DNA of 28,946 nucleotides from a virus (lineage: Duplodnaviria > Heunggongvirae > Uroviricota > Caudoviricetes). This document shows positions 1 to 28,008 of the stretch, one piece after another. The stretch lies in the IMG/VR virus record IMGVR_UViG_2617270968_000004, one strand, 5' to 3'. The translations under genes were made by a program, and so were the position numbers. A model generated the notes under the pieces. The model saw nothing but the letters and a program-made list of their open reading frames with translations. It was not told where the DNA came from and did not search any database. Position 1 is the first letter of the stretch. Every line of letters starts with the position of its first letter.

Positions 1-124
1 CCTTTGATGAAAGCGTGATCCGCGCCGCTTCAGCCAGCCATTCTGGTTGTGTTATCAGACGCAGCAGCCGTTGAATCCGTAGGGACGGATCGGTGACTGC
101 CCATGTGGCAAGCTTGCGTTGCAT
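1..124 (-). CDS. Intron-encoded reverse transcriptase/maturase, N-terminal fragment (runs off window)
   Basis: Minus-strand ATG at 124 opens a frame through position 1; the ...ITLSSKG motif precedes the RT domain in group II intron proteins. Family recognised by pattern only. Confidence 0.5.
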   Translation of the reverse strand, partial: MQRKLATWAVTDPSLRIQRLLRLITQPEWLAEAARITLSSK

Positions 125-795
125 TTCGCTGATTATCAAAGGTCTTCACCTCGTTAGGTCAGTTAATTCACGTCGCAAACACATTCAAACTGCTTCCCTT
201 CGCCATGTAATGGGCTTTCCCCATCGCGGACTACTACGGAAGCTCCGCCAGCCAGCGCGTCATCGGAGCCATGCCCCCTTAACATCCGTCGCTGACCTTC
301 CCCGGTTTACCTGCCTGGACTCAGGCATACTGAGGAGGCTGCCCGTCGCACTCTTTATCCTTGCTTGCCGCAAGTTGGCAGAAGTCAGCAACGCAAGCGT
401 GATAGACGCTGCTGCCCCGGTGTTTCGCATACATGTCAAAACACCTTCGACCGGCAGTGCTTACGTATCACTGCCAGTTCCTCCTGCACGGCCTGTCAGA
501 TCACGTAGGCCGTGGTGACGTTTTCAACCCACAGAGGCGGATTAACGGGTTCATGTTCTTCAGCCTTTCAGTACTTAACCTTGAGGATCATCTTGGCTTA
601 GTGATCTCGCCTCAATCCCCGTTGTCAGCGGGTTACATCACCCTGCGGGCATGCCGCAGGTCACTGCCGCTCAGGTTCTCCACCGTCACACCCGGTGGGA
701 TTGTTGGGTTTCTCATCGTGAGTTACCGGTTCAATATTCCAGACAGACTCGCGGTTCATTTAAGCATCCATGCCCGCCCTGAACTCCGGGCACAC
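1..795 (-). mobile_element. Group II intron, 5' portion (ribozyme domains plus start of the intron-encoded protein); continues beyond window start
   Basis: On the minus strand the IS629 orfB frame breaks after the FTY codons at 796 and the inserted sequence begins GTGTGCCCGGAG (GUGYG group II 5' consensus). About 670 nt further an ORF starts (ATG at 124..122, minus) reading MQRKLATWAVTDPSLRIQRLLRLITQPEWLAEAARITLSSKG, typical of the N-terminal region of bacterial group II intron reverse transcriptase/maturases. Confidence 0.6.
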
Positions 796-1213
796 CGTAA
801 GTAAAATCAGCCACCCACAGCTGGTCAGGTCGTTCTGCCACGAACTGACGGTTTACGCGGTCGCCTGCGGCAACGGCTTTCCGGCTGATGGTCGTACGGA
901 CCTTTTTACCCCGGAGAACACCGGCAAGTCCCATAACCGCCATGAGACGTGCCACAGTGCATCTGGCCACTCTGATACCTTCCCGTAACAACTGACGCCA
1001 GACTTTACGCACACCGTATACCTTGTGATTTTCATCGTATACGCGCTGTATCTCTTTCTTCAGCCAGTCATCGCGCTGCGCACGGGCACTGCGTTTATCC
1101 GGATGATGTCGCTGTTGCTGACAGTGGTAATACGTTGACGGGGCAATATGCAGTTCGCTGCATAGCGGTCCGACCCCGTACAGCTTACGCAGCTTATCCA
1201 GCAGTGGCATCAT
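796..1213 (-). pseudogene. IS3-family transposase OrfB, N-terminal part truncated by intron insertion
   Basis: [32 protein letters not shown]...WVADFTY matches IS629 OrfB up to FTY, then diverges into intron sequence (track ORF 731..1213). Confidence 0.75.
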
Positions 1214-1536
1214 TTTTTCCAGAGGCGGTCGAACTCCGCCTTCGCAAAATAAGCGGAAGCCTGGCGAAGGATATCGTTACTGCGGCGCAGTTCACGATTT
1301 TCACGTTCCAGCTCTTTCAGACGCTGACGTTCAGCGGTGGTGAGCCCTCCATCACCGCCCCCGGTATCCCGCTCATGCTGGCGAACCCAGACACGCAGAG
1401 TCTCCGGCGTACAGCCAATCTTTGGAGCAATGGAACAAATTGTCGCCCATTGTGAGTCATATTCGCTCTGACTTTCCAGAACCATACGGACTGCCCGTTG
1501 ACGGACTTCGGGGGAAAAACGAGTATTTTTAGTCAT
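1210..1536 (-). CDS. IS3-family transposase OrfA (IS629-type)
   Basis: 108-aa [25 protein letters not shown]... with helix-turn-helix and leucine-zipper-like C-terminus, characteristic of IS629/IS1203 OrfA. Confidence 0.85.
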
Positions 1537-1590
1537 CCTGTTTACCTCTTTCTCAGGAAGTTTAGTCTCCAGGATTCCCGGGGCGGTTCA

Positions 1591-1948
1591 CTATTACCTG
1601 GCCGTCGTATTGGAAATGGCGAATCATTTCGCGGATCCAGGTGGCAGGTGGGAGTTTTAATTTTTTGCCAACAGTCATACCCTGAGACTCATCCTCAAGC
1701 CCGGCGGCGAGCGTCACAACCCAGCGTAGCTCTGCTATGCCCCACATACGGTAAGCCAGCAAATCCGGGCGATATTGCTCATCGGGAAGAACGTAATAAA
1801 TCGTCAGATTCTTGTCGTTCGATTCACACATAAGCATCACCTCTTTGCGTAGCTCTGCCCTGAGTATTGGATCGGCTATGTTGCGGTCGTCATACCGCGA
1901 CAGAGGATATTGCCGGGTGCTTTGGGTTGTAGTGATTGATGTAGCCAT
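1591..1948 (-). pseudogene. Backbone gene of unknown function, C-terminus replaced by IS629 insertion
   Basis: ORF 1562..1948 (minus) runs into the IS629 terminus at 1590; the last about 9 codons are IS-derived. Confidence 0.5.
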
Positions 1949-2020
1949 AGTCAGCCTGCCAGAAATAGATGATGGTGATTCTACCGCTAGTCATTTGTTG
2001 ATTATTTAACTCAATAAAAG

Positions 2021-2037
2021 AAAATTATTAGTGCAAT
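2021..2037 (-). promoter_or_regulatory. C1 operator-like site (ATTGCACTAATAATTTT, 15/17 to consensus)
   Basis: Reverse complement of 2021..2037 matches the P1 C1 operator consensus ATTGCTCTAATAAATTT with 2 mismatches; lies in the AT-rich divergent intergenic region. Confidence 0.45.
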
Positions 2038-2094
2038 TTTGATTGTGAAATGTATCATTCTGCCCTTAAGTAGGTTCTTCACGAGGAAACAAAA

Positions 2095-2340
2095 TTGGCA
2101 GAACGTGTTGATGATGCAGAGCTGAGCATGAATCAGTTAGAAGCTCTCAAAGACATGGCCATCGATAACATCAGAAAGCAGGCACAGGTCGTGAGCCAGG
2201 TATTTACAGGGAAGTGTCGTTACTGCAATGAATCGATTGAATCAGGCATTTATTGTGACGCTGAATGTGCGCAATGGCACAGGGAAGAGCAGGCTGCAAA
2301 ACAGCGTAAATATAGCATGCGACCGGCAGGATTTGACTGA
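2095..2340 (+). CDS. TraR/DksA-family C4 zinc-finger protein
   Basis: Small protein with C-terminal CxxC...CxxxC (CRYCNESIESGIYCDAEC); TTG start at 2095 with GAGGA upstream; alternative ATG at 2128. Confidence 0.5.
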   Translation: MAERVDDAELSMNQLEALKDMAIDNIRKQAQVVSQVFTGKCRYCNESIESGIYCDAECAQWHREEQAAKQRKYSMRPAGFD

Positions 2341-2342
2341 TT

Positions 2343-2921
2343 ATGTTGCGCTTTACTGAGGAAGAGTTTCAGGCTTTTAGTGAGCGTCGAAATAAGGGGC
2401 GGTCCAGGCCAAAAACCAAAAAGGATCCATTCTTATCGCTTGCGCCGGTAAAAGAAGTTTCTCCACATGCGAAGGCACTTGCAGCACTGGCAAAGAACCC
2501 CGACCTGCGCGACGGAAATTGCGAGCACTTCGAGCAGGTTTTCATTTTTGATTACTTCGAACGCAAGCACCCTGACATCTATGAGCTGTTGCATGCAACG
2601 CCTAACGGAGGGAAACGTTCAAAAGCAACCGCCGGGAAAATGAAGGCTGAAGGGCAGAAAAAAGGTTATCCGGACATGAGTCTCGATAAAGCATGCGGTA
2701 TTTATCACGGCATGCGAATTGAGCTTAAAGAACCAAATGGTAAAGCCCCGACGAAAGAGCAGATCGCCTGGATGCGCAGGCTTAGAGAGGAAGGTTACTA
2801 CGTCGTTCTTGCGTATGGTGCAGAACAAGCGATAACCGCCATCCTGGAATACATGAGCCTTAAAAAGGGTGAGGCTATTGAGCATGTATTGAACGGTGAC
2901 AAGTGGTTGTACGCTACGTGA
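2343..2921 (+). CDS. VRR-NUC domain nuclease-like protein
   Basis: 192 aa; C-terminal half carries the PD-(D/E)xK-type VRR-NUC signature (GYPDMSL...GMRIELK); start abuts the upstream stop. Confidence 0.55.
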   Translation: MLRFTEEEFQAFSERRNKGRSRPKTKKDPFLSLAPVKEVSPHAKALAALAKNPDLRDGNCEHFEQVFIFDYFERKHPDIYELLHATPNGGKRSKATAGKMKAEGQKKGYPDMSLDKACGIYHGMRIELKEPNGKAPTKEQIAWMRRLREEGYYVVLAYGAEQAITAILEYMSLKKGEAIEHVLNGDKWLYAT

Positions 2922-3117
2922 AATAATAAATTAATTAGTGCATGTGTGCTCTTTGATATAGCGCACATTAACATCGGGAGAATAATCGTGTCATCCAAGG
3001 CTAATTATGAATCGCTGGCATCGATCATGCCGCGTAATGAACAGGAAGCAGATGCTGTAGTGGACCCGGTAATCGCTGAAATGAATGCTCGCCTGGAGGC
3101 TGAATTTGCAGCTGAGA

Positions 3118-3747
3118 ATGAACATACCACCCAGGGCGACTAGGACTGTTTTTTGTGTCGGTAGCGGTCCGTCACTCACTCGTGAGGACTGTGCTGCTAT
3201 AGAAAAAACTGGCTGTTCAATCATCGCGGTTAACAATTCCTGGCAGATGTTCGATGACATTTATGCCTTATACGCCGGTGATTTGTCATGGTGGAAGCAA
3301 TACGGATCCACCATACCGGGAGGGAGATTCCGCAAAGTGACAGCCAACCTGGCGGCGGCGAAATCATTTTCGTTGGAGTACAGGCGATATTGTGGACCGG
3401 CTGAAGGGGTTAATAGCGGCGCGCAGGCTATCAGTCTGGCGGCTGAATCAGGGGCTGAAGTAGTTGTATTAGTCGGCTATGACTGTTCTCTGCAAAACGG
3501 CCTTCATTGGCATGGAGCACACCCTCAAGCCCTACGGAATCCAACGCAGGTGTCTATTTCAAAATGGCAACAGCAGTTCCTGGATACCCGCAAAAAACAC
3601 GCAGATTTACATATTTTGAATGCAAGTAGGAGCAGTGCAATTCAATGTTTCCCAAGAATAAATTTAGAGGCAGTGATCGCGTTATTATCGTCGGCAGTGG
3701 CCCAAGCGCCGCAAACTTTGTTGCGCCGCGCGGAGTGCCGATTATAG
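3118..3747 (+). CDS. Hypothetical protein with GxGPS Rossmann-like motif (paralog 1)
   Basis: MNIPPRATRTVFCVGSGPSLT...IIAVNNSW; motif spacing mirrors the downstream paralog. The track ORF begins at 3085; the in-frame ATG at 3118 gives a size equal to paralog 2. Confidence 0.5.
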   Translation: MNIPPRATRTVFCVGSGPSLTREDCAAIEKTGCSIIAVNNSWQMFDDIYALYAGDLSWWKQYGSTIPGGRFRKVTANLAAAKSFSLEYRRYCGPAEGVNSGAQAISLAAESGAEVVVLVGYDCSLQNGLHWHGAHPQALRNPTQVSISKWQQQFLDTRKKHADLHILNASRSSAIQCFPRINLEAVIALLSSAVAQAPQTLLRRAECRL

Positions 3748-4271
3748 CGGTCAATGGGGCCATCGACTGGCTGAACCGCGCTTCTTATTTTTTCACACTT
3801 GATCCATCGCCAGACAATATGCGGCGCGTTGGTCGTGGCCGCCGTCGCCGTGGTGTTTGTTATTGCATGGCACTACCCGATGTTAAAGAACGTGAAGTCA
3901 GAGACGGCGTTCTGTGCTTCCGTCGTGTGGCTGAACGTGGCATGGAGCCAAAAAATACGAATTCTCCCGAGTGGTGGGCGTGGCGCTGGTCCGCACATTT
4001 CGGACTTTGCGAAGATGAGAATGAAATTGCCAGCGGCAATAGTGCATATGGCGCTCTGAACCTGGCTTTCCATATCGGATTCAAACATGTCGCCCTGGTG
4101 GGCGTTGACGCTACACAAGAACCACGCGTTCACTCCGGCGGCACGCCAAAAAATCTAAGTCACCTGCCTTTGTTATTCCAGTCTGCGCGTGAACAGATTG
4201 ACGTTGTTTCATGCGGGAGAATGGGAGGTATTCCGCAGATGACTCTTAAAGAATGGCTGAAGAATACATGA
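3645..4271 (+). CDS. Hypothetical protein with GxGPS Rossmann-like motif (paralog 2)
   Basis: [25 protein letters not shown]...IIAVNGA; AGGAG upstream; stop overlaps the next start (ATGA). Confidence 0.55.
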
Positions 4272-4945
4272 TGGCACCCACAATTTATCACCGTATCGAC
4301 GGTACCAAATACAGGAATGTCTGGGTTGTTGGTGATCTGCATGGTTGCTACACCAGACTGATGTCCGAACTCCATCGTGTGGATTTTGACCCGGCGCAGG
4401 ATTTACTGATATCGGTCGGCGACCTTATCGATCGCGGTACTGAAAATGTCGAATGTCTGGAACTATTGCAGATGCCCTGGTTCAGAGCGGTCATGGGTAA
4501 CCATGAGCGGCTGATGATTGATGCGTTAAGTCCAGATGGCAACGTGAATAACTGGCTAATGAATGGCGGACAATGGTTCTTCATGCTGGACACTGAGCAG
4601 GAAATATTAGCCTGGGCGCTGGTGGAGTTGGTAAGACGACTGCCCTATATCATTGAGTTGAACACCGGGCAAGAAACTATCGTTATAGCCCATGCCGACT
4701 ATCCGGATAATGAATACCAATTCGGTAAGGAGGTGCCGCTTTTCAACGTTGTCTGGGCGCGCGAGCGTATCAGTGATTCGATGGATGATATTGGTGGCGA
4801 AATTTCGGGCGCAGATCGTTTTATCTTTGGTCACACTCCGGTGAAAAGCCCGAAGACATTCTGGAATCAGCAGTATATCGACACTGGTGCCGTATTTTGC
4901 GGAAACCTGACATTGATGAAAGTGAAAGGTGATGGTGCAGCATGA
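4253..4945 (+). CDS. Lambda-type serine/threonine protein phosphatase (calcineurin-like metallophosphoesterase)
   Basis: [16 protein letters not shown] and GNHE motifs; alternative start ATG at 4268 overlaps the upstream stop. Confidence 0.8.
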
Positions 4946-5643
4946 AGATTGCTTTAGTTTTTCGCTCTGGTGGTGACTATAACGCTTCCGATGTGCAGTG
5001 GCTGGTTAATCAACTGCCAAAAGGCTATGAAATTATTTGCCTGACAGACCTGAAGCGTTTACATGTACCTGGCGTCAAAGTTGTCCCATTGATCAACCAG
5101 TGGCAAAAGTGCCGTGGCTGGTGGGCGAAAATAGAGTTGTTCCGACCGGATATAACAGATGATCTGTTCTATCTGGATTTGGACACAGTTATTGCCGGTG
5201 ATATACGCCCAATCCTTGAGAATCCACCAACCAGCTTCACCATGCTTAGGGATTTTTACCATCCACAATATCGTGGTAGCGGTGCCCTGTGGATACCAAA
5301 TAGTGTAAAAGCGCATATCTGGAGTGCATTCTGGCAAGATCCGGAAGGTTGGGTTGCTCGTTGTGTTACTACTGAATGCTGGGGTGAGCAGGGGTTTTTG
5401 CGGAAGGTTATGGGTGATGATACACCAGCATTTCAGGATCTGTATCCGGGATGGTTTGTAAGTTACAAGGCCGATGTTGTGGAACCTGGTTCGAAATATG
5501 CGAGCGCGCGTTACTCCAGGGGGAATGGGGCATTACCAAAAGACTGCCGAATAATCTTTTTCCACGGCAAACCGCGACCTCGCGAAGTGTCAGAGGATTG
5601 GCTTCCCCTTATCAGCTCGTTTTTTGAGCGAGAATCAGAATAA
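4942..5643 (+). CDS. Putative glycosyltransferase-like protein (DxD motif)
   Basis: 233 aa with YLDLDTVI (DxD-like) in an N-terminal Rossmann-like region; ATGA overlap with the phosphatase stop. Confidence 0.4.
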
Positions 5644-5644
5644 T

Positions 5645-5661
5645 ATTGCTCTAATAATTCC
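5645..5661 (+). promoter_or_regulatory. C1 operator (ATTGCTCTAATAATTCC)
   Basis: 14/17 match to the C1 operator consensus, with the first 13 bp exact. Confidence 0.55.
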
Positions 5662-5670
5662 ATATTTTTA

Positions 5671-5699
5671 AAACGTGATGTACACTTATCACGTTTTTT
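5671..5699 (+). terminator. Rho-independent terminator
   Basis: 9-bp stem AAACGTGAT/ATCACGTTT with 8-nt loop followed by a T-run, directly after the glycosyltransferase-like gene. Confidence 0.6.
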
Positions 5700-5710
5700 A
5701 TTAGAGCAAT
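5694..5710 (-). promoter_or_regulatory. C1 operator (minus orientation)
   Basis: Reverse complement reads ATTGCTCTAATAAAAAA. Confidence 0.5.
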
Positions 5711-5724
5711 CTACAGGGTGCACT

Positions 5725-5943
5725 ATGTGGCCATTCCGACGGAAATATCACTACTGGCTGATCGCCTTTGTTACGCCGACCGGCGGTATCAGGCATGTCA
5801 TCACCAGGTATCGCAACAAGAGACTCACCTTAGCCAGAATTTTACAGGCTGCCATAGGTGAGGGACTGGATACAAATTGCGTAGTCCTTCCTCCTTCATA
5901 CTTAGGAAAAATGACCGAAGCACAAGCTAATACGGAACTTTGA
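5725..5943 (+). CDS. Hypothetical small protein
   Basis: 72-aa ORF ending 1 bp before the next gene; no recognisable motif, weak RBS. Confidence 0.3.
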   Translation: MWPFRRKYHYWLIAFVTPTGGIRHVITRYRNKRLTLARILQAAIGEGLDTNCVVLPPSYLGKMTEAQANTEL

Positions 5944-5944
5944 A

Positions 5945-7207
5945 ATGAGCACTTCAGCACAAAACCAATCAATCGAAAATGTATCTATCCCTGATGTCCT
6001 GAATGCCGGTATCCCGGCCATTATCCAGAACATCCGGGCCGCGCAACGCCGCGTTAGTTGTGATGACCTCACAGCACGTTTTTTTGATAATGCGGTTCAG
6101 TCAGCGGAGATGCTTCACGCACAGCTTATTGATGTTTATAACGCAGAAGCTGATAGCCATAACTCCCTGGTAGATGCAGCTGAAAATATGCAGTTGGATC
6201 TCGGTCTGAAGGGTAAAGAAATTGAAGAGCTTCAGCTGCAAATTGAACATTTGAAACGCCAGCAACAGGACGCGATCGACGATGCGACGCATGACGCCAA
6301 CCAGCGTGCTGATAATGCCGAACGTATAAGCATTGAGCTGGAAACAAAACTCAATGAAGTGACCGCGATGGTTGAACTGCGGAACTCACAGATTTCAACG
6401 CTAAAATCTCAATATAAAGAGATCATGAAACTTGATCCTTTTAACCTTGAGAAACGCTATAACAAAGCCAAAAGTGAGCGACAGGAACTGCGTAAGCAGG
6501 TCGCCGACCTTAACCAACAGCTCAAAAAGACTATTAAAGATGCAAGTGAGGCGCGCGTGGCATTTGCTAATAAAAAAGCAGAGGTTACCGCGCTGGTTAA
6601 TGAGAATGCCAAATTTGCGACGCTCAAGAAGGAAATGTATGGCATTACTGAGCGACGTTTCCCTGCAAGCAAACTTCATCCGACGTTAGGGCAAATCTCC
6701 TTCTTCCCGCGCCTCCTGGCTTATGGGATCTCATCGCCTAAAGAGTTCAATAACGAGCGTCCTTATATCGTTTCTAAGCTGGACTTTGCTTATCAGTTCT
6801 GCTGCGACATGGGCTATGCCATTGATATCCGAATCAACGAATGGTTGATGCCAAACTTCCAGCCGTTGGCCATTTTCCGCGAGTTCCAGCCGGAAGGTTG
6901 GGTAGAGTTCTTCCATGAATTGATCTGTAAAGAGATGGAAAGCCGCCGCCCGGAACTGGTCCGTCGAGTTGAGTGGGCGCAAGAGGTTATGTTGGCAGAG
7001 GCAGAGCTGCCGTTCGAACCGGAATTTATTGATGATCTGGCAGCTAAAGGGCTGCATACCCTGTTTGATGTGGTTACCCGCCGTCATGAGCAGTTGGTTG
7101 TCGAATTGGGTTTAGAGGAAACAGCGGCAAGAAGACTTCTCGATGTTTGCTATGCACGTAGCGATGCATGGGAAAAAGAGAACGGCGGCACTATTTACGT
7201 TCGCTGA
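5945..7207 (+). CDS. Hypothetical protein with long N-terminal coiled-coil region
   Basis: 420 aa; residues about 70-230 are heptad-rich (E/K/Q/L), C-terminal globular part unrecognised. Confidence 0.6.
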   Translation: MSTSAQNQSIENVSIPDVLNAGIPAIIQNIRAAQRRVSCDDLTARFFDNAVQSAEMLHAQLIDVYNAEADSHNSLVDAAENMQLDLGLKGKEIEELQLQIEHLKRQQQDAIDDATHDANQRADNAERISIELETKLNEVTAMVELRNSQISTLKSQYKEIMKLDPFNLEKRYNKAKSERQELRKQVADLNQQLKKTIKDASEARVAFANKKAEVTALVNENAKFATLKKEMYGITERRFPASKLHPTLGQISFFPRLLAYGISSPKEFNNERPYIVSKLDFAYQFCCDMGYAIDIRINEWLMPNFQPLAIFREFQPEGWVEFFHELICKEMESRRPELVRRVEWAQEVMLAEAELPFEPEFIDDLAAKGLHTLFDVVTRRHEQLVVELGLEETAARRLLDVCYARSDAWEKENGGTIYVR

Positions 7208-7279
7208 CAGTTACAGTGTCACTTTTGATGCTGGTGGAGTGCGCCCACCAGCATTTTTTTCGTCCAATGAGGAGGGCAT

Positions 7280-7786
7280 TTGAGTATTTTCAATAAACAC
7301 GCACACCAGGAACGTCCGTATATCGTCATAGTTGATATTGATGGAACAATATCAGAGGCAACTGAAGACAGACTGCATTTGCTTCCGCCACCAGGTAAAG
7401 GTGCATTAACAAAGGACTGGAACGAGTTTAATCTCGCCTGTGACACTGATACTCCCATAACTCCAGTTATTGATATTGTGCGCCAGTTATTTAACGTTTA
7501 CACGGTCTGGTTTGTAACCGGGCGCTGTGAGATCGCAAGGGATAAAACACGAGCCTGGCTGCGGAAGTACGTAACAAACGGGGCTGAGCCTTTGCTATCT
7601 ATGCGTCCTGCCACCGATGACAGAAATGACGGCCCAGCAAAGATTGATCTCCTTAAGAAAATTGGTCTAAGTAAAATCGCGTTCGCGCTGGAAGATAAGA
7701 TTGAAGTGGCGCGTGTTTTCAGGAGGCACGGCGTGCTTACGTTAATGGTCAGGGAGTATGAAAACGCGCTTCTCCATCAACAATAA
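7280..7786 (+). CDS. HAD-superfamily phosphatase-like protein (polynucleotide 3'-phosphatase-like; P1 pap-like by position)
   Basis: N-terminal DIDGT motif (HAD motif I) in a 168-aa protein. Confidence 0.55.
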   Translation: MSIFNKHAHQERPYIVIVDIDGTISEATEDRLHLLPPPGKGALTKDWNEFNLACDTDTPITPVIDIVRQLFNVYTVWFVTGRCEIARDKTRAWLRKYVTNGAEPLLSMRPATDDRNDGPAKIDLLKKIGLSKIAFALEDKIEVARVFRRHGVLTLMVREYENALLHQQ

Positions 7787-7802
7787 TTGCTCTAATAAAT
7801 AT
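7786..7802 (+). promoter_or_regulatory. C1 operator (ATTGCTCTAATAAATAT)
   Basis: 16/17 match to consensus, overlapping the pap-like stop codon. Confidence 0.6.
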
Positions 7803-7825
7803 TTATTTTTAAAGCAGAGAAAGTG

Positions 7826-7856
7826 AAAATAAAAACATGCCGCAAGGCGCGGCATG
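7826..7856 (-). terminator. Rho-independent terminator for minus-strand (hsdR) transcription
   Basis: 8-bp stem CATGCCGC/GCGGCATG with 5-nt loop; on the minus strand it is followed by a U-rich run (plus-strand A-run 7826..7835). Confidence 0.55.
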
Positions 7857-7884
7857 TATCCAATCAATCACAGGAGCTGAAAAT

Positions 7885-7971
7885 ATGAACACGGCATTCA
7901 AAATCATTATGGCCGCGATCTATTTCTGGCTGTTCTCTATCACTTTTGGCGATATCGTCGCACATGGGTAA
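7885..7971 (+). CDS. Small hydrophobic peptide (28 aa), candidate membrane peptide
   Basis: MNTAFKIIMAAIYFWLFSITFGDIVAHG with strong SD (CAGGAG, 8-nt spacing); lies within the 3' untranslated region of convergent hsdR. Confidence 0.3.
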   Translation: MNTAFKIIMAAIYFWLFSITFGDIVAHG

Positions 7972-8050
7972 GGGGAGTATATTAGCCATTTGGAACCCCA
8001 CGGTCTCTTGCGGGTTTAATTAAGAACCCGCAAGAAAAACACGAATTGGG

Positions 8051-11000
8051 CTATATTTTTCCGCCTACGCCTTTAAACTTCTCAATAAACGAGACGATTT
8101 TCTGGAAAACTGCCTGTTTTTTCGTTTTATATTGCGGATTTAACGGACTAAGTTTTGGTAATGTTTCGTTTAATTCTGTGCCATTTTCGGTGGCATATTC
8201 GCGTTTTAAAGACGTGCGAATATAGCGTTTTGCTGCATCTTCATTGAGATTTTCTTCTTTTATCAATGCTTCTGCTTCACGTTGCTGTTCGCGTTGAGCA
8301 AACGTAAAGAATGCGTCAATGATGCTGGCTTTGTCCGGTAAATCATCCAGGTTCGTTTGCTGAATAAAATCGACCACCAGGCCCTCTTTAGCACGGTTTC
8401 CCAGGCTTGAACGAATTAAGCGTTTGACCTCTTCGATCATTTCGCCCTTGCCTTTATTTTGTCTGTTGTGTTCGAAAATCAGTCCAAGGATATAATCCAG
8501 GTTTATTTCCTGAGACTTCAGCAAATCGACCTCAAAAACTACGTCATCCCAGTCAGTGGTTGATTTCTCTTTTTTCTCAGCTTCTTTCTCACGGCGCTGC
8601 CAGTCGCGAATATCGTTATAGGCAGAACGATAATCCTGAATCTTGCGATCAGCAGGGAGACGAATTGTTTGCAATTCAGCGAACTTTTCATCATCCACAT
8701 AATGTTCTGCTTTGAATTTTTCTACCGCAACAGGATCGCTAAGATCGATTTGTTGCAGGGCTTTTAGCGTGGCAAATTCATCATAGTTTTGCAGGATGTT
8801 CTCGGCACGCAGGTATTCGCCAAACAGTTTAACGAAGTCTTTCTTCTCTTTTTCACTTTCAATACTGGTAGGGTCAGGGAACCGTTGTTCCAGTTCTGAA
8901 ACTACTGTCATGAAGCCGCGTTTAGCTTCACCTGTAGCAGCATCAGTAAAGCCTTCCATATACTCTGTATAACTCTTTTCTAACACCACATTTTTGGTGT
9001 TTTTGTCACCAAACAGCGTTATGGCATCAATAGTTGAGCGTTCCAGATCCCGGAAAGTGACGATATTACCGAAGGTTTTAGTGGCGTCATAAATGCGGTT
9101 GGTGCGGGAAAATGCCTGCATCAGGCCGTGATAACGTAAGTTTTTATCGACGAATAGCGTGTTCAATGTTGGAGCATCGAAGCCGGTTAAGAACATCCCC
9201 ACGACAATTAGCAGATCGATATCCTGATTTTTAACCCGCTGGGCTAAATCACGATAGTAGTTCTGAAAACCGTTACTGTCGGTGCTAAAGTTAGTTTTAA
9301 AATGGCTGTTATATTCACGAATTGCAGCGTCCAGAAACTCTTTAGCACTGCTGTCCATTGCGCTGGTATCAAAAGTTTCATCGGAAATTTCACCAATGGC
9401 ATTTTGTTCTTCATTGGCGGCAAAGGAGAAGATTGTCGCAATACGCAGCGGTTTATAGGTAGCCGATTTATTAGCGGCTTCTTCTTGTAACCGTTTAAAC
9501 GTCGCATAATAGGCTTTCGCGGCATCCACGCTGCTCACTGCCAACATAGCATTAAAACCTTTTGAGCCAGGGAAGGTACGGTGGGTTTTCTGGCGGAAAT
9601 TATTCAGAATATATTGCGTGATTTCCTGAATACGCATGGGATGAAGAAACGCCTGCTGATTTTCAGCCGCACTCAGTTTTTTCTCGTCAGTTTCTGTCTC
9701 TAAAGACTTAAACTGTGGCCGCACATCGTTGTAGTCCACCTTGAATTTGAGCACTTTTTCGTCACGAATCGCATCGGTAATTACATACGAATGCAATTCA
9801 CGACCAAATACGCTGGCGGTTGTTTCTGAGCCTAAGGCGTTTTCCGGGAAAATAGGGGTGCCGGTAAAACCAAACTGATAATAGCGTTTGAATTTCTTCT
9901 TCAGGTTTTTCTGCGCTTCTCCAAACTGGCTGCGGTGGCATTCATCAAATATAAACACCACTTGCTGATTATATACAGGCAGATCGCTTTCTGCTTTCAT
10001 CAGGTTATTGAGTTTCTGAATAGTAGTGACGATAATTTTGTTATCGTCCTTATCCAGATTTCGTTTAAGGCCTGCGGTATTTTCCGAGCCGTTGACGCTG
10101 TCTGGCGAAAAACGCTGATATTCCTTCATGGTCTGGTAATCGAGGTCTTTCCTGTCGACCACAAAGAAGACTTTATCAATAAAGTCCAGCTCTGTTGCCA
10201 GACGCGCGGCTTTAAAGCTGGTGAGGGTTTTACCAGAACCGGTAGTGTGCCAGATATACCCACCGCTTTCCGGTTTTGACCAGTTCTTCGCTGTAAAGGA
10301 ACTCTTAATTTTCCACAGAATGCGCTCGGTGGCGGCAATCTGGTACGGTCGCATTACCAGTAGTGTCTGACTGCTGTCAAAAACGCTGTAGTTCACCAGA
10401 ACATTAAGCAGAGTATGTTTCTGGAAAAAGGTGGCGGTAAAGTCTTTGAGGTCTTTAATCAGCGTATTGTCTGATTTCGCCCAGTTCATGGTGAAGTCAA
10501 AACTGTTTTTATCGCGCTTTGTCGTGTTGGCAAAATAACGGGTATCAGTGCCGTTGGAAATGACGAACAGCTGCAGATACTTAAACAGGGAATTTTCGCT
10601 GTTAAAACTCTCTTTACTGTAACGATGTATCTGGTTGAAAGCCTCACGAATCGCCACGCCGCGTTTTTTCAGTTCGATTTGTACCAGCGGTAAGCCATTA
10701 ACCAGGATAGTTACGTCATAACGGTTAGCGTGAGAACCCGCCTGTTCAAACTGCTGGATAATCTGCACCTTATTGCGCATGAGATTCTTTTTATCTATCA
10801 AATAGATGTTCTCAAGACGCTCGTCATCAAAAATAAAGTCGCAAATATAGTCGATATGGATTTTACGGGTCTTATCCAGAATGCCATCGCTCGGGTTATC
10901 CAGATACTGCTCCGTGAAACGCCGCCACTCGCTGTCATTAAACACCACACCATTGAGGTTCTGAAGCTGTTCCCGAACATTGGCCAGCATCGCCGACTGT

Positions 11001-11167
11001 GATTTTACGGATATAAATTCATAGCCCTGATTCCGTAGGTCCTGTATCAGTTCGCGTTCCAGGTCCGATTCGCTCTGGTAGCTGTCGCCTGTTGGCTCAG
11101 CTTTGATGTACTTATCAAGAACGATAAAGTTATTGGATTCAGCAATGGTGTGTGTCTGATGAGTCAT
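8051..11167 (-). CDS. hsdR: Type I restriction enzyme R subunit (HsdR), type IC EcoR124-like
   Basis: 1038 aa; N-terminal PD-ExK nuclease motif ([17 protein letters not shown]), helicase motifs TGSGKT and DECH; size and N-terminus match the EcoR124 family as I recall it. Confidence 0.92.
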
Positions 11168-11288
11168 AGCGCATCCTTTGTGCCGTCTGGCAAGGGCCGG
11201 AAGGGGGGTAATGGTGACTTCCGGCGCGTAAAAAATAGTCTATATACTGACCGGGTGTTAAGGTGGTCCGATCGGTAGCAATGATCAA

Positions 11289-12503
11289 TTAATTACTGAC
11301 AGTTTCAGGTTTCGGGAAACTGAACAGTAAATCACGATAGTACTCGTATTGTTTCTGGCGCAACTCGATTTCACGCGGAAGACCTTCGGTGATGGAGTTA
11401 GTCAGTGTGTCGAATTTGTCGAGTATTTCGACAATTCGTTGTTGTTCATTGATGTTAGGAACCGGAATTTTAAATGAAAATAATTTTTTACTGTCAATAG
11501 AAGCTACGGACCCTCCTGTCTTTTTCGCTGCTCGCAGAATATCACTCCCCCTAGACCCAATCATATGATAAATATATTTAACCAAGATGTTTTCATGAGG
11601 AATGACTGCTTTCATATCTTGATTGAGCGTAGCAGGTACTTTTATTAATGCACTTGGTAATACTTTATCCAATATGCTTGAGCGAACAACGATTGCAATC
11701 GAGTTTGCTGGAATCAGTTTTGTTGACGATTGTAGAACAGCCTCCTCAGTTATATAGTCTTCCGAAGAGTCTACAAGTGTTCGGCCCATATCTTTCGGGG
11801 AAATCCATGGAATGCTTCCATTTTCCCAAAATTCAATTTTATTTTTTGATGGTGTCCCTCCCCCATACCATTTTCCGATCTCTCCCAAAGTCTTCCACTC
11901 AACCTCACCCTCTTTAAAACTCAACAACTGGTCGCGATAGTAGTTGTACTGTTTTTTACGCATGTTAAGCTCAGCGGTAAGCTCAGCGGTAAGTGCAGTA
12001 AATTTATCCAGAATCCGAACGATTTCAGACTGGATGGCAAGGGATTTTTCCGGATTATCCGGGCAGGGGATTGGGATTTTTTTTTGAGAATAATTACTAA
12101 TCCATTGGCGTTTATGGTCTCCCTCTGCGAATTCACTTGGTAATGTATTGAGCCAATAGTAAACATATTTCAGTAAGGTTTTATTATCATCACATGATGT
12201 AACCATTTTCATGGCCGATGATTTTGCCTTAAAGTCAAAATCCACCCATTTATTAGCGGTGGTGAAATCATCAAAAATTATTACAGGTGCCTTTGATGCC
12301 TGATAAATACCATGAGTCTCATTTGTGTATCCAAGAATAAATGTTTTTCCGGCAGTAAGAACCGGTATGGTATATGTGTCGTGATAATCTTTTGCTTTTA
12401 CCAAATACTTTGTTGGCTGTTCATATTTGGTTATTTCCCCCAATGGCAACCACTCAACTTCAACCCCATCCAGCAATTTTTCCAGATAACTCATCTCGCT
12501 CAT
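11289..12503 (-). CDS. hsdS: Type I restriction-modification specificity subunit (HsdS)
   Basis: 404 aa with two target-recognition domains separated by conserved regions ...[26 protein letters not shown] and ...[19 protein letters not shown]; 4-bp overlap with hsdM. Confidence 0.9.
11967..11990 (-). repeat. Tandem 12-bp repeat (2 copies) encoding TAEL-TAEL in the HsdS central conserved region
   Basis: Plus-strand AAGCTCAGCGGT x2; in type IC systems the copy number of this repeat sets the spacer length of the recognition site. Confidence 0.8.
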
Positions 12504-14062
12504 TTCTGCACCTCGCAGCCTTCAATTTCAGCCACAATCGCATCAATATCTTTGCGCAACTGGTCGATTTTGCTGACCGTGGTTTTCAGCTCAGCATTCA
12601 GCTCAGCAATATCGATAATTTCGCGGTTATCTTTCGCTTCCACATAGCTGCTCACCGACAGGTTATAGTCATTAGCAACAACGGTCTCAAACGCGACAGA
12701 TTTCGCCAGATGAGCAACATCTTCCTTGCTGGCAAATACCTGCATAATCTGTTCGATATGGGCATCGGTCAGGATATTGTTGTTAGTCTCTTTTTTGAAC
12801 AGTTCGCTGGCGTCAATAAACTGAACGTTGGTATCCGTTTTATGTTTGGACAGAACCAGAATGTTTACTGCAATGGTGGTGCCAAAGAACAGGTTCGGTG
12901 CCAGTGAAATTACGGTTTCGACATAGTTATTGTCAATCAGATACTGACGGATTTTCTGCTCCGCGCCGCCACGGTAAAAAATACCCGGGAAGCAAACAAT
13001 CGCAGCACGACCTTTGGCAGAAAGATAGTTCAGCGCATGTAATACAAACGCAAAGTCAGCTTTGGATTTGGGGGCCAGAACGCCAGCCGGGGCAAAACGT
13101 TCATCGTTAATCAGCGTCGGGTCATCGCTGCCAATCCATTTCACCGAATACGGCGGGTTAGAAACGATGGCATCAAACGGTTTTTCATCTCTGAAGTGTG
13201 GCTCAGTCAGTGTATTACCCAGCTTGATATCAAACTTGTCGTAGTTGATGTTGTGCAAAAACATGTTCATACGTGCCAGGTTATAGGTTGTATGGTTGAT
13301 TTCCTGACCAAAAAAGCCTTCTTCGATGATATGGTCATCAAACTGTTTTTTAGCCTGCAACAACAGCGAACCGGATCCTGCTGCCGGGTCGTAGATTTTG
13401 TTAACGTGGGTCTGCCCGTGCATAGCCAGTTGTGCAATCAGCTTAGAGACGTGTTGCGGTGTAAAGAACTCGCCGCCTGACTTACCGGCATTCGCCGCAT
13501 AGTTAGAAATCAGGAACTCATAGGCGTCACCGAACAGGTCAATCTGATGTTCGTTGAAGTCACCAAGTTTTAACCCTTCAACCCCTTTCAGAACCGCAGC
13601 CAGGCGGGCATTTTTATCTTTAACGGTGTTACCCAGGCGGTTACTGGTAGTATCGAAATCAGCAAACAAACCTTTGATGTCAGCTTCTGAAGGATAACCG
13701 TAAGCAGAACTTTCGATAGCAACGAAGATGCTGTTTAAATCTGCATTCAGTCTGTCATTAGTATTTGCTTTCGCAGCTACGTTGCAGAAAAGCTGACTGG
13801 GGTAGATGAAGTAGCCTTTAGTTTTGATGGCATCGTCTTTAATGTCATCAGTAATTACGCTGTCATCCAGTTTCGCATAACAGATACTGTCATCACCGGC
13901 TTCAATATAACTGGAAAAATTTTCGCTGATAAAACGGTAGAAAAGTGCGCCCAGAACGTATTGCTTAAAATCCCATCCATCGACCGAACCCCTGACATCG
14001 TTAGCAATTTGCCAGATTTGACGATGAAGCTCTGCACGTTGTTGAATACTTGTCATTTTCAT
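12500..14062 (-). CDS. hsdM: Type I restriction-modification N6-adenine DNA methyltransferase subunit (HsdM)
   Basis: 520 aa; AdoMet-binding [10 protein letters not shown] and catalytic NPPY motifs. Confidence 0.92.
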
Positions 14063-14201
14063 CCACTTATTTCAGGCTTATGTAATTGGATGTGATTCTA
14101 CAGCAACTTGGATGCTTTAGCAGTTCGGACATTAGGCTACGAATGACCTGCCTAGAGGTTTGTTAAGCCGCAAAGTGCTGGTGCTTTATGCCTGTGAAGT
14201 T

Positions 14202-14230
14202 TATAATTGTGTACACATAACGAGTACATG
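14202..14230 (+). promoter_or_regulatory. phd-doc promoter/operator (-10 TATAAT followed by GTAC-centred palindromes)
   Basis: TATAAT at 14202..14207, perfect palindrome TGTGTACACA at 14208..14217 and a second GTAC-centred site at 14222..14229, immediately upstream of phd. Confidence 0.5.
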
Positions 14231-14238
14231 AGGTATTT

Positions 14239-14460
14239 ATGCAATCCATTAACTTCCGTACCGCGCGCGGCAACCTTTCTGAAGTGCTCAACAATGTTGA
14301 GGCCGGGGAAGAGGTTGAAATCACCCGCAGAGGCCGTGAGCCAGCAGTAATTGTCAGCAAGGCTACTTTCGAAGCCTACAAAAAAGCGGCGCTGGATGCT
14401 GAATTTGCATCCCTGTTTGACACCCTGGACTCCACCAACAAGGAACTGGTTAACCGATAA
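14239..14460 (+). CDS. phd: Phd antitoxin (prevent host death; Phd/YefM family)
   Basis: 73-aa [39 protein letters not shown]..., P1 Phd length and sequence as I recall it; stop overlaps the doc start. Confidence 0.92.
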
Positions 14461-16183: not shown

Positions 16184-16766
16184 ATGTTACTTAACTGGCA
16201 GGGACGCCACTTCATGGAAATAAATCACTCACGAATAACATCGTACGAGATTGCGGATTACATGATCCGCACTAAATCTCTTCTATCAGCGAAAGAACTC
16301 GCAGCAATTCTTGAAAAGGAATACCCGCATCTGGATGTCGATAAGCGCGATGTTTATCTGCGCTTACGAACGAAAGCGTGAAAATAACTGGTCAGTGCTG
16401 GAAGCAGCTGAATTCATCGAGGCGCATGGCGGAAAAGTGCCGCCCCTGATGCTGGAGCAAATCAAAGCCGATCTGCGTGCTCCTAAGACCAATACCGATG
16501 ATGAGGAAAGGCAAACAGCCGTCGGTGGCCCTTCTCTTGAAGATCTGGACAAAGTTGCGCGAGAACGGGCCGCCAACCGCCGCGCCGATGCCGCATTGTG
16601 GATTGAGCAGCGTAGGGAAGAAATCGCCGATATCGTTGATACAGGCGGTTATGGAGATGTTGATACTGAAGGTGTATCAAACGACCCATGGCTGGAACAA
16701 GACCTGGACGAAGACGAGGAGGAAGACGAAGAAGTTACCCGCAAGCTATACGGGGATGATGATTAA
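16184..16766 (+). pseudogene. Candidate late gene (small-terminase or late-activator position) split across two frames
   Basis: ORF 16184..16381 (frame 2) and ORF 16311..16766 (frame 3, TTG-started in the track, acidic C-terminus [11 protein letters not shown]). A single +1 shift near 16375 would join them into about 190 aa; the stop overlaps the pacB start (TAATG). Confidence 0.3.
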
Positions 16767-24353: not shown

Positions 24354-24998
24354 ATGGATAAGAAAATATGCGTTGTTTCGATGAACGTCGGCAAACCGGC
24401 GTCAATGACTGCTGCATGGATCAACAACGAGCTGATAATGGCTGAGCGGACCAGATACCCTGAACGCCGCCGCGACATGGAACTCCAGCTGCTGCGCGAA
24501 TTGCGAGAAAAAGAGGAAAAGGGTTTTATCGTGCTGGTGGAAGAGGAAAACAGCTTTATTACTGGTCGAGTTGGCCAGCGTGTAAGGTTGCGCGATCCCT
24601 TCATGAACGGCAGGCCGGTACTAATTGAAGCAATGCAGATTTACAAGGAGTTGGAACGCCAGAAAGCGATCAAGTTACCGCGCAAGGAATCCGGCAAATA
24701 CATCCTCCACCAAAGCATCTTCGATTCCGAACACGATAAAAAAGGCGATGAGTTTTTCAACATCAACTGGAGCGAAATAACGACAGAGCATGTTCTGACG
24801 TTGTTATGCTGCTTCGCAACAGAATACAACAACGTGGTAAGCGCAGACTACATCAGGACAATGACAGACACCGTTACTAAACAAGACAACGAATATTCAC
24901 CATATGAGCCATTTGTAAATATGATAAAAGCATTTTATCGGATGGAGCTCACTAAAGTTCCTCAAGGTAAATTAACAGGTAAGGATAACATCTTTTAA
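24354..24998 (+). CDS. mat: Mat-like protein (maturation control position in P1)
   Basis: ORF with AGGGGGAG SD before ATG 24354 (track ORF 24327..24998); positioned after ref as in P1. Confidence 0.5.
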   Translation: MDKKICVVSMNVGKPASMTAAWINNELIMAERTRYPERRRDMELQLLRELREKEEKGFIVLVEEENSFITGRVGQRVRLRDPFMNGRPVLIEAMQIYKELERQKAIKLPRKESGKYILHQSIFDSEHDKKGDEFFNINWSEITTEHVLTLLCCFATEYNNVVSADYIRTMTDTVTKQDNEYSPYEPFVNMIKAFYRMELTKVPQGKLTGKDNIF

Positions 24999-25051
24999 GC
25001 ACAGTAATGAGGTGCTTAGATGTTCATATCAATATCCTAACTCTCTGCATC

Positions 25052-25741
25052 TCATAAATCTGATAGCCACTTACTATCTATGGACTCAATCTCCGTCAGC
25101 GGAATTGATGGGAAAAAATATCCCTGAGCGCCCCATAGTCCTATCCCTTTTGATAACTTATGACAATCAATGTTTTCGACGCCTTCAGCGATGATATTCG
25201 GACATAACTTTTTTAAATTGCTAATAATGACATCAAAATGAGGCTTAATCATATGCTCTTGAAAAAATGACTTATCAAGTTTTATTGCATGATATTTATT
25301 TTTAATTAATGCTTTCATGGTGGCGTTACCACTTCCAAAATCATCAAGCCAAACATTATCTGTCAAAGTCAGTAGAAAGGATATGATGTAATCCTCATCG
25401 CTTAAATCAGGATAGTTTTCTGATATTTCAATCGCTATAAATTTATTGTTTATTAGTAGTTCTTGAATTTGTTTATTGCCATATATATATAAACAGGTAT
25501 CATAATCTACATTGATAGAGCATAATATATTATGGCGTTCAAAAAAATACTTATATTTGATTATTGTGTTAAGTTGAGATTTTAGCAAGTTAATCTTCAT
25601 CTTGCTTGTAAACATACCCAATACTTTCTGAGTAGAAAGAATAGCCCCCTCGTTGGAATAAAATCTGCTCAACACTTCCACTGCTATCAACTTGTTAGTG
25701 CTTGTGGAAATGATTGGTTCTACTATGTAGATAACTTCCAT
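25052..25741 (-). CDS. EAL-domain protein (putative c-di-GMP phosphodiesterase), stand-alone
   Basis: 229 aa with EAL-domain signatures EVL (E retained), DDFGSG, KLDKSF, AEGVEN and QGYFF; SD GAGGG upstream; visibly AT-rich gene. Confidence 0.7.
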   Translation of the reverse strand: MEVIYIVEPIISTSTNKLIAVEVLSRFYSNEGAILSTQKVLGMFTSKMKINLLKSQLNTIIKYKYFFERHNILCSINVDYDTCLYIYGNKQIQELLINNKFIAIEISENYPDLSDEDYIISFLLTLTDNVWLDDFGSGNATMKALIKNKYHAIKLDKSFFQEHMIKPHFDVIISNLKKLCPNIIAEGVENIDCHKLSKGIGLWGAQGYFFPSIPLTEIESIDSKWLSDL

Positions 25742-25964
25742 GCTCCCACCCTCTATTTTTAAATTGGTTGGCTTTAGCAGATAAAGTGCCCTTTATATTT
25801 ACAGGGGTTACACACTATGTCAATTTATTTATCTGTAGTGAAATTGATAAAAATTCAATAATAAAAAAACAGCAACTGTGACACAAATCAATATTTTTAT
25901 TTTTTGCACAACTTCTTGATTTCAGTGCTGCTGTATCTCTATTCTTGTTCAAAGCCTCTTTAGA

Positions 25965-26699
25965 ATGGTGGTAGCTATGTCAGGAGTCTGTTACTTCATC
26001 CTAATAAAAAAACCGATAATTTTTCAATTTCTTAAGGATTTCTTAATATTAAATTATGGTGATGTGCTGTTGCTTAAACATTCTGAACGCGAATTCTTAC
26101 AAACCTATTCAGATAAATATATCGAATTCGAACTTAATGATAGTGCTGTAAGAAACTATTTATCTTGTCACAATCACCAAGGGAAGCAACTTCTGGATAA
26201 ATGCCCACATTTGCTAAAAAAGTCTTTTGCTTATCCTGATTTATTAATCAGGATGATCGATAATATAAGTGACCAGAATCATATACATCCTGATTTTAAG
26301 GATGCTTTAACTTTTTCATTACTTTCAATTTTTAGTGATGTTGACAACCTTAGAGCTTTTCTTACGTCTGGCATGCCTACTTTCTCAGGGAAAGTACGCA
26401 GCATATTTCTTTCAGATGTATCTAAACATTGGAAACTAAGAGATTTAACTGATTATCTATACATGAGTGAGAGTTTAATAAAGAAAAAACTATTATTAGA
26501 AAACACCTCCTTCAGTAAGTTATTACTTGATACACGGATGGCTTTTGCTATTAAATTACTAAAGCAAAACCGCCCCCTCAAACAAGTATCAGAAAGTTGT
26601 GGTTTTAGTAGTATATCGTACTTTGTGTACCTATTTAGGCAGTATTATAATTGTACACCATGTGAATATGCAAAACATCAGTTATCATCTGGGAAATAA
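25965..26699 (+). CDS. AraC/XylS-family transcriptional regulator
   Basis: 244 aa; C-terminal helix-turn-helix region ...LKQVSESCGFSSISYFVYLFRQYYNCTPCEY; AT-rich, divergent from the EAL gene. Confidence 0.7.
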   Translation: MVVAMSGVCYFILIKKPIIFQFLKDFLILNYGDVLLLKHSEREFLQTYSDKYIEFELNDSAVRNYLSCHNHQGKQLLDKCPHLLKKSFAYPDLLIRMIDNISDQNHIHPDFKDALTFSLLSIFSDVDNLRAFLTSGMPTFSGKVRSIFLSDVSKHWKLRDLTDYLYMSESLIKKKLLLENTSFSKLLLDTRMAFAIKLLKQNRPLKQVSESCGFSSISYFVYLFRQYYNCTPCEYAKHQLSSGK

Positions 26700-26737
26700 G
26701 ATGCATTTATCTCCCAGATAATATTGTAATATTAAAC

Positions 26738-26986
26738 TCAGTCAGCATTTAGTAGCAGAGCATTATCTATGATGATCTGCTCCCATTCTTCGAATGCCCG
26801 GTCGCGGACGCCCTGGGGAACGCTGTTTGTTTTGAAATCGACGACCGTCCGCCATTTTCCGTCAGGACGGTACATGCGCAGAGCTTTACTTCCCCCTTCC
26901 CTGCGCACCTCAACGTTATGCTTGTCAGCAAACTCTTGTAATGCTCGTAGCGTCCCATGCTTTACTGTGTAGTATCGCTTTTTCAA
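26738..26986 (-). CDS. Hypothetical protein (82 aa)
   Basis: ORF whose start overlaps the stop of the upstream 146-aa ORF (ATGA). Confidence 0.45.
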   Translation of the reverse strand: MKKRYYTVKHGTLRALQEFADKHNVEVRREGGSKALRMYRPDGKWRTVVDFKTNSVPQGVRDRAFEEWEQIIIDNALLLNAD

Positions 26987-27423
26987 GTTTTATCTCCAGC
27001 CTGTGCTAAGGCTTCAACTTCCAAATCGTAAGACTCAAACTCATAGTCCTGGTCGTCAACTTCTTCAGGCACTGGCAGTAAATGCCAGGCTGAGTATATC
27101 TGACCATTATCAAAACGCTCCTGGCTGTAGAGCGTCGCGGCTATGAGTGTTAGCGCCGGGCGGTCATAACGGTAAATTTTGCGAACGTCACGGTCAACGA
27201 GACGACCGAAATTACCATAACCGCGCTCCAGTAATAATTTTTTAATTTCCGGCCAGTATGGACCATAGCTGCGGTACAGGCGGGGGTTTTTCAGTAATCG
27301 CCCGCGTAGCCCTGACAGGAAGAAATCAACGTATTCGTCTTCTGTTTTTCCTAACAACGCTGTACGGAGTACCGCCTCAAGATATGTTTTATTCGGTTTT
27401 ATTGTATCAGATAGTGTGACCAT
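26983..27423 (-). CDS. Hypothetical protein (146 aa)
   Basis: ORF preceded on the minus strand by a stable GCGCCCGG-TTCG-CCGGGCG hairpin (27424..27445). Confidence 0.45.
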   Translation of the reverse strand: MVTLSDTIKPNKTYLEAVLRTALLGKTEDEYVDFFLSGLRGRLLKNPRLYRSYGPYWPEIKKLLLERGYGNFGRLVDRDVRKIYRYDRPALTLIAATLYSQERFDNGQIYSAWHLLPVPEEVDDQDYEFESYDLEVEALAQAGDKT

Positions 27424-27674: not shown

Positions 27675-28008
27675 TGAAGTGGCACACTGAATTTGGCCAC
27701 CTGAACAGAGGTGATATGCTCACCTCAGAACAACACAGGTGCTCCAATGAAAAAAAGAAATTTTAGCGCAGAGTTTAAACGCGAATCCGCTCAACTGGTT
27801 GTTGACCAGAAATACACGGTGGCAGATGCCGCCAAAGCTATGGATGTTGGCCTTTCCACAATGACAAGATGGGTCAAACAACTGCGTGATGAGCGTCAGG
27901 GAAAAACACAAAAAGCCTCTCCGATAACACCAGAACAAATCGAAATACGTAAGCTGAGGAAAAAGCTACAACGCATTGAAATGGAGAATGAAATATTAAA
28001 AAAGGCTA
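27675..28008 (+). mobile_element. IS911 (IS3 family) left end, interrupted by IS30
   Basis: Terminus TGAAGTGGCACACTGAATTTGGCCACC from 27675; orfA follows and is cut after ...ENEILKKAT. Confidence 0.8.
27747..28008 (+). pseudogene. insN: IS911 OrfA (InsN-like), truncated by IS30 insertion
   Basis: [52 protein letters not shown]... then diverges into IS30 end sequence. Confidence 0.8.

Follow-up and report, generated by a model that had tools for sequence, protein, structure and literature searches.

Group II intron E.c.I4 within an IS629 copy at gene 26 of a P1-like phage-plasmid

Introduction

What makes up the first 1,590 nucleotides of a P1-like viral contig, and in what order did the pieces arrive? 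The contig, IMG/VR record IMGVR_UViG_2617270968_000004, is 28,946 nucleotides long and is referred to here as the window. A sequence-only reading of it had proposed that a group II intron lies within IS629, that IS629 lies within a backbone gene, and that the locus records two successive insertions. We find it very probable that window 1-1590 represents the left-hand part of a nested mobile element, in which the group II intron E.c.I4 occupies IS629 orfB in the sense orientation and IS629 occupies gene 26 of a P1-like phage-plasmid. The nesting of E.c.I4 in IS629 is already described; the only new element is its location in a P1-like plasmid. IS629, the intron, and gene 26 are all encoded on the minus strand, and the coordinates of their parts are collected in Table 1.

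Table 1. Coordinates, strand, and supporting evidence for the nested element and the gene it interrupts
Feature	Window position	Strand	Evidence
Group II intron E.c.I4, 5' 795 nt (domains I-III and start of domain IV with ORF), cut by window edge	1..795	-	Starts GUGUG; 794/795 identical to the 2270-nt L001 copy; published E.c.I4 coordinates; MFE z-score -3.0
5' splice-site consensus GUGUG (GUGYG)	791..795	-	Sequence; boundary set by spliced-junction match
Intron-encoded reverse transcriptase/maturase (ltrA), first 41 codons	2..124	-	Translation identical to the N terminus of the 502-aa L001 protein
EBS1, 5'-CGUAAG-3', intron nt 331-336, in hairpin loop (hairpin at window 477..455)	460..465	-	6/6 Watson-Crick pairs with exon -6..-1, CUUACG
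Candidate EBS2, 5'-GAGAUCA-3', intron nt 188-194, in predicted hairpin loop	602..608	-	Pairs with exon -14..-8, UGAUUUU (5 Watson-Crick and 2 G-U)
Homing-site 5' exon: IBS1 CUUACG (801..796) and candidate IBS2 UGAUUUU (809..803)	796..809	-	D-F-T-Y codons of IS629 orfB
IS629, 5' 795 nt, left terminal repeat to intron insertion point	796..1590	-	99.3-99.8% identity to copies annotated as IS3-like element IS629; terminus TGAACCGCCCC
IS629 orfB, N-terminal 139 codons	797..1213	-	Open frame; Pfam HTH_21, 1.3e-18
IS3-family programmed -1 frameshift signal, ALIL pseudoknot	1139..1255	-	Rfam RF01497, 119.4 bits, E 6e-32
IS629 orfA, intact, 108 aa	1210..1536	-	Pfam HTH_Tnp_1, 7.4e-13
P1 gene 26 (baseplate protein), codons 1-119	1591..1948	-	119/119 identical to P1 gp26

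Results

IS629 interrupts gene 26 of a P1-like replicon

The sequence-only reading had seen the IS629 terminus at 1590 truncate a backbone ORF at 1591..1948, and this ORF proved to be P1 gene 26, of which the last 6 codons are lost. Its frame continues into the IS629 end and stops at 1562, so that the last 6 residues of gp26, GTLSIA, are exchanged for the 9 residues VNRPGNPGD. The IS629 end follows ...CAGGTAATAG, which is position 78097/78098 of P1 (AF234172), 20 nt ahead of the gene 26 stop. Oriented like gene 26, IS629 stands between this gene and the downstream late genes 25, 7, and 24; with an insert of ~3.6 kb at this place, a polar effect on those genes is plausible.

The surroundings are those of a P1-like element. 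Window 1591-22000 is covered over 59 to 96% of its length, at 95 to 98% identity, by P1, P7, RCS47, SJ46, and vB_EcoM-673R5, and in 154 plasmids the coverage is 80% or more. In comparison with bacteriophage P1 gene 26 and the late operon LP26 (AF234172), gp26 residues 1-119 are identical and the surrounding 20 kb is 95 to 98% identical to P1-like phages and plasmids, whereas the C-terminal 6 gp26 residues are replaced by the IS-derived tail and the lineage is without lpa'-'pacA (1135 bp, including pac). This deletion relative to P1 (AF234172 90173-91308) lies at window 16366/16367, with the lpa remnant starting at 16184 and the pacA remnant extending to 16766. It cuts Lpa, the late-promoter activator, after codon 61, and LPpac, the pac cleavage site, and the 5' two-thirds of pacA are gone.

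Two other IMG/VR contigs carry the gene 26/IS629 junction. The first matches window 1363-14288 at 100% identity and has its end in IS629. The other (L022) is 99.8% identical to the window over 10.8 kb, with an identical gene 26/IS629 junction, and its intron runs 553 nt further, ending at about intron nt 1348. The same lpa-pacA deletion junction is present in both, and contigs with gene 26::IS629 and this deletion represent a lineage of probably defective P1-like plasmids. Although the insertion site in the second contig is the same, its IS629 differs from the window copy at 5 positions, 4 of them within 63 nt (window 1072-1213), and the differences match the IS629 variant of a plasmid (L002); such clustering points to gene conversion between copies of IS629. 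Plasmid records and complete E. coli genomes yielded no gene 26/IS629 junction, and a scan of metagenomes for the source replicon or a leftward extension was empty.

Other parts of the window carry further accessory DNA. A type I restriction-modification operon occupies 8051-14062 on the minus strand (hsdR, 1038 aa; hsdS, 404 aa; hsdM, 520 aa); the hsdS region (about 11423-12450) is divergent from that of vB_EcoM-673R5, the closest phage, as would be expected if the target-recognition specificity differs. Window 24863-27423 holds cargo not common to vB_EcoM-673R5, namely, an EAL-domain protein (25052-25741, minus strand), an AraC-family regulator (25965-26699, plus strand), and a 146-aa ORF without a Pfam match. 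At the far end, 27711-28946 is a pile-up of insertion sequences in which an IS3-family orfA (HTH_Tnp_1) is cut at about 28010 by an IS30 that shows homopolymer-length differences and an inverted IS1 fragment at about 28540-28640. The pile-up lacks the IS3-family orfB and therefore shows no E.c.I4 homing site.

The intron is inserted precisely into IS629 orfB

We compared window 1-2000 with complete E. coli genomes by megablast. In 30 genomes, window 1..~1600 was covered in one stretch at 99.3 to 99.8% identity, and those stretches are annotated as IS3-like element IS629 family transposase, ltrA group II intron reverse transcriptase/maturase, and IS3 family transposase (missing N terminus). The left end of IS629, TGAACCGCCCCGGGAATCC, lies at window 1590, and the leftward reading opens with the terminal repeat, TGAACCGCCCCGGGAATCCTGGAGAC. 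A longer IS629 end, given by 8 to 14 extra flanking bases in BLAST matches from other genomes, was rejected, as the flanks are unrelated (GGTAATAC and CCAGTAACGG versus CCAGGTAATAG, only loosely alike). The window holds the left repeat, orfA, the ALIL pseudoknot, and the N-terminal part of orfB, all at the identity to annotated IS629 given above. In contrast to an uninterrupted IS629, the window copy is split by the intron at nt 795/796; the DDE core, the right repeat, and the target duplication lie off-window and are present in the complete copy used as a reference, locus L001 of E. coli 67-1.

The interrupted part of orfB ends ...LWVADFTY, just ahead of the catalytic core, with the Tyr codon at 799..797. 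The intron opens GTGTGCCCGG at 795, directly after G796 (the same start is also given as GTGTGCCCGGAG). The sequence-only reading had placed a cut after the codons FTY, at position 796; the cut and the site stand, but 796 is the last exon base, the first base of a Val codon, and the intron starts at 795. This boundary comes from the spliced junction, which we rebuilt by joining 104 nt of 5' exon (...TTACG) to 146 nt of 3' exon (TCAGCACATGG...). The resulting 250-mer, ...GATTTTACTTACG|TCAGCACATGG, is a 100% match to uninterrupted IS629, and an unbroken stretch spanning at least 80% of it occurs in 3095 genomes. Both intron boundaries are therefore fixed, the insertion is precise, and excision restores ...D F T Y V S T W....

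The window and L001 differ at 3 of 1590 positions, without indels, and the single substitution of the window intron relative to the compared copies is at intron nt 202 (window 594). The L001 intron is 2270 nt long (L001 4804..7073) and ends ...CUCUAC; IS629 resumes right after it with TCAGCACATGG... and continues to the right end. Its domain V/VI, which in our locus would lie off-window, matches Rfam RF00029 at 64.9 bits (gathering score, 40; E 1e-11). The termini fit the group II consensus, as GUGUG at window 795..791 agrees with GUGYG and the ...CUAC of the full copy agrees with AY.

An intron-encoded maturase had been expected to begin about 670 nt into the insert, and the ATG is indeed at 124..122, 671 nt into the intron; the frame reads MQRKLATWAVTDPSLRIQRLLRLITQPEWLAEAARITLSSK up to the window edge. 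The full 502-aa L001 protein matches RVT_1 (1.4e-34) and GIIM (1.3e-10), and no HNH family was found in it (Pfam, E ≤ 0.01). The 671-nt ribozyme part folds better than 20 of 20 shuffled sequences (z, -3.0). Rfam families for group II domains D1-D4 gave no match in window 1-2000 at E ≤ 1, and these models may not cover class A introns. A CRISPR-DR8 match in the intron part (Rfam) was disregarded as being at chance level (E 0.77). Judged by its match to full copies elsewhere that carry domains V/VI, reverse transcriptase, and maturase, window 795..1 is a group II intron.

The nested arrangement stood up, at a level of agreement well above chance: its 1590 nt differ at 3 positions from the L001 IS629::intron. 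Its leftward extension could be followed in part. The second sibling contig adds 553 nt, reaching into the reverse transcriptase; the protein frame there is open through residue 225, in the RT domain, and the 1348 visible nt differ from L001 at 2 positions, both amino-acid substitutions. Complete copies elsewhere contain the reverse transcriptase, the maturase, domains V/VI, and a resuming IS629, but the right junction of our locus (IS629 right end, 0 to 8 nt, gene 26 tail) was not found in viral or metagenome contigs. The window itself displays the intron to nt 795, and the completeness of the nested element here is presumed from the copies elsewhere.

Exon recognition at the IS629 site

Base pairing between the intron and the exon at 796, which the sequence-only reading had named as a check on its claim, was found at 6/6 positions between EBS1 and IBS1. 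CGUAAG is the sole exact complement of the last six exon bases within the 795 intron nt, against a chance expectation of about 0.2 for such a hexamer match in that length. It lies in the 9-nt loop of the hairpin GGCAGUG-AUACGUAAG-CACUGCC (-16.1 kcal/mol; z, -4.6), and a hairpin loop is the usual presentation of EBS1. A466, which adjoins EBS1 on its 5' side, could pair with U at position +1 of the 3' exon. The assignment of EBS2 is tentative, because its pairing is only partly kept at other natural IS3-family homing sites.

Two other stretches of complementarity were set aside. UAAGUA (intron nt 219-224), which pairs with exon -8..-3, was rejected as EBS1 because it stops short of the splice site and shares bases with IBS1. 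A 7-nt complement at intron nt 662-668 lies in domain IV beside the ORF start and was taken as a chance match.

At each site with an available flank, E.c.I4 follows the D-(I/V/F)-T-Y codons of an IS3-family orfB and one further base. Among these IS3-family sites, a 6/6 match to EBS1 is confined to IS629; the IBS1 of several others has 1 or 2 mismatches. The EBS1 loop is identical in all near-identical copies, and the divergent copy L009 gave no gap-free alignment, so there is no covariation of EBS1 with the IS host to compare.

The intron is E.c.I4

A comparison with described introns, a check that the sequence-only reading had suggested, identified the copy, and its coordinates in other genomes match published ones. 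The supplement of Leclercq and Cordaux (2012) lists E.c.I4-4 of E. coli 55989 at 4751982-4754252, and a 1764-nt remnant, E.c.I4-tr1, of K-12 at 271415-273178 (PMC3522654). Our match in E. coli 55989 (H11) has its intron start at 4751983, in agreement with E.c.I4-4, and the K-12 matches (H84 and H85) start at 271415, the position of E.c.I4-tr1. We attribute the 1-nt offset, and the length of 2270 nt here versus 2271 nt as listed, to a different counting of an ambiguous G at the 5' junction.

On these comparisons the intron is E.c.I4, of bacterial class A and without an endonuclease domain. Toro and coworkers placed E.c.I4 and S.f.I1 in bacterial class A, with ORFs lacking a recognizable D/En region (PMC3552965, PMC4244168), consistent with the missing HNH match reported above. 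The 795 nt of the window are 1 nt away from full copies of E.c.I4/S.f.I1 (Zimmerly database naming) and occupy the same IS629 orfB homing site, and the intron protein likewise has RT and X domains without an endonuclease domain. The window copy shows no difference in kind; it stands out by its place on a P1-like phage-plasmid, and it can be read over its 5' third only.

A parallel is RmInt1, in ISRm2011-2 of Sinorhizobium meliloti (also cited in PMC3522654), a bacterial group II intron that likewise lacks an endonuclease and naturally homes to a site within an insertion sequence. The likeness to E.c.I4 in IS629 is in this way of homing; RmInt1 differs in class (D versus A), IS family, and host, and the two show no sequence relation at the level examined.

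Of 5426 complete E. coli genomes, 2563 contain the 5' 795 nt of the intron; K-12 is one of them, and its copy is annotated ykfC. In a scan of one genome per species, the 5' end was also found in Shigella, E. albertii, Kluyvera, Enterobacter, Pantoea, Tenebrionibacter, and a Halomonas MAG. Outside E. coli, near-identical copies (loci L006-L019) occupy a homologous position in at least six different IS3-family transposase genes. E.c.I4 also assembles as stand-alone contigs of 2271 to 2272 nt in draft genomes. Specific positions of IS629, IS911, ISEc16, and ISEc31 are used by E.c.I4 (PMC3522654).

Order of insertion and integrity of the element

A trivial explanation for the nesting could be a chimera put together by the assembler from joined repeats, given that IS629 and E.c.I4 are both multi-copy. 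The gene 26/IS629 junction is, however, identical in two other independent contigs and is therefore real rather than an assembly artifact, and the IS629/intron junction is the canonical homing site of 30 complete genomes; a chimera is thus scarcely credible. A less improbable alternative, which we nonetheless regard as unlikely, is that the element is a dead fragment, with the intron or the 3' part of IS629 truncated or rearranged left of the window or with neighboring P1 tail genes removed by an IS-mediated deletion. The intron is cut off by the end of the window at nt 795 and by the end of the sibling contig at about nt 1348, the junction of the IS629 right end with the gene 26 tail is missing from the viral and metagenome contigs, the plasmid is already decayed (the 1135-bp lpa-pacA deletion and the IS pile-up at the other end), and truncated E.c.I4 copies such as the K-12 remnant are documented. 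Yet short-read contigs normally end in multi-copy repeats, and this intron even forms contigs of its own; moreover, the 1348 visible nt are intact, with an open intron protein frame and 2 positions of difference from L001.

How the nested element came to lie in gene 26 is more evenly balanced. The earlier claim of two successive insertions holds in that IS629 preceded its intron, but the order relative to entry into gene 26 does not follow, since a composite could have entered in a single event. Entry of IS629::E.c.I4 (about 3.58 kb) as one unit is a real possibility that we place somewhat below an even chance. Such composites occur in 30 complete genomes with several different flanks (treR, DUF932 genes, and a plasmid); they would keep both IS ends, with transposase perhaps coming from spliced mRNA or, in trans, from other IS629 copies; and an intron-free gene 26::IS629 was not found in plasmids or E. 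coli genomes. Varied flanks are, on the other hand, equally expected from repeated retrohoming into resident IS629 copies, and in some strains E.c.I4 fills most available IS3-family sites by independent recent retrohoming (PMC3522654), which makes retrohoming in situ equally plausible. The data do not separate in situ retrohoming from transposition of a preformed composite.

Discussion

The arrangement at this locus can be placed in a mechanism that draws on the known steps of group II intron mobility (reviewed in PMC4424553). E.c.I4 recognizes its target, a stretch that is conserved in transposase genes of the IS3 family, by base pairing through EBS1/IBS1 (CGUAAG/CUUACG) and probably EBS2/IBS2. 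Its RNP would then reverse-splice into DNA, and, without an endonuclease, the intron would be copied with nascent replication-fork strands as the primer. Removal of the intron from the IS629 transcript by splicing would reopen the orfAB transposase frame, whereas an unspliced IS629 would be unable to make its own catalytic domain (the DDE core). For the phage, the expected consequence would be a gp26 lacking its 6 C-terminal residues, and a polar effect of the ~3.6-kb insert is likely.

Could a P1-like phage-plasmid lineage serve as a vehicle that moves IS629::E.c.I4 between enterobacterial hosts? We consider this very improbable. In the phage collection, intron-bearing IS629 occurs only in Stx and other prophage records and in none of the P1-like records; if the idea were true, Punavirus genomes would gain their first recorded group II intron, and read-through from the late promoter LP26 would supply a phage-driven transcript for intron splicing.

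The value of the finding is mainly one of annotation: it supplies the correct name, E.c.I4 in IS629, and the exact boundaries of a nested retroelement that disrupts gene 26. Together with the lpa-pacA deletion, that disruption marks a probably defective prophage-plasmid that is gathering mobile DNA. For the intron, the locus is one further instance of the documented colonization by E.c.I4 of IS3-family transposase genes on mobile replicons.
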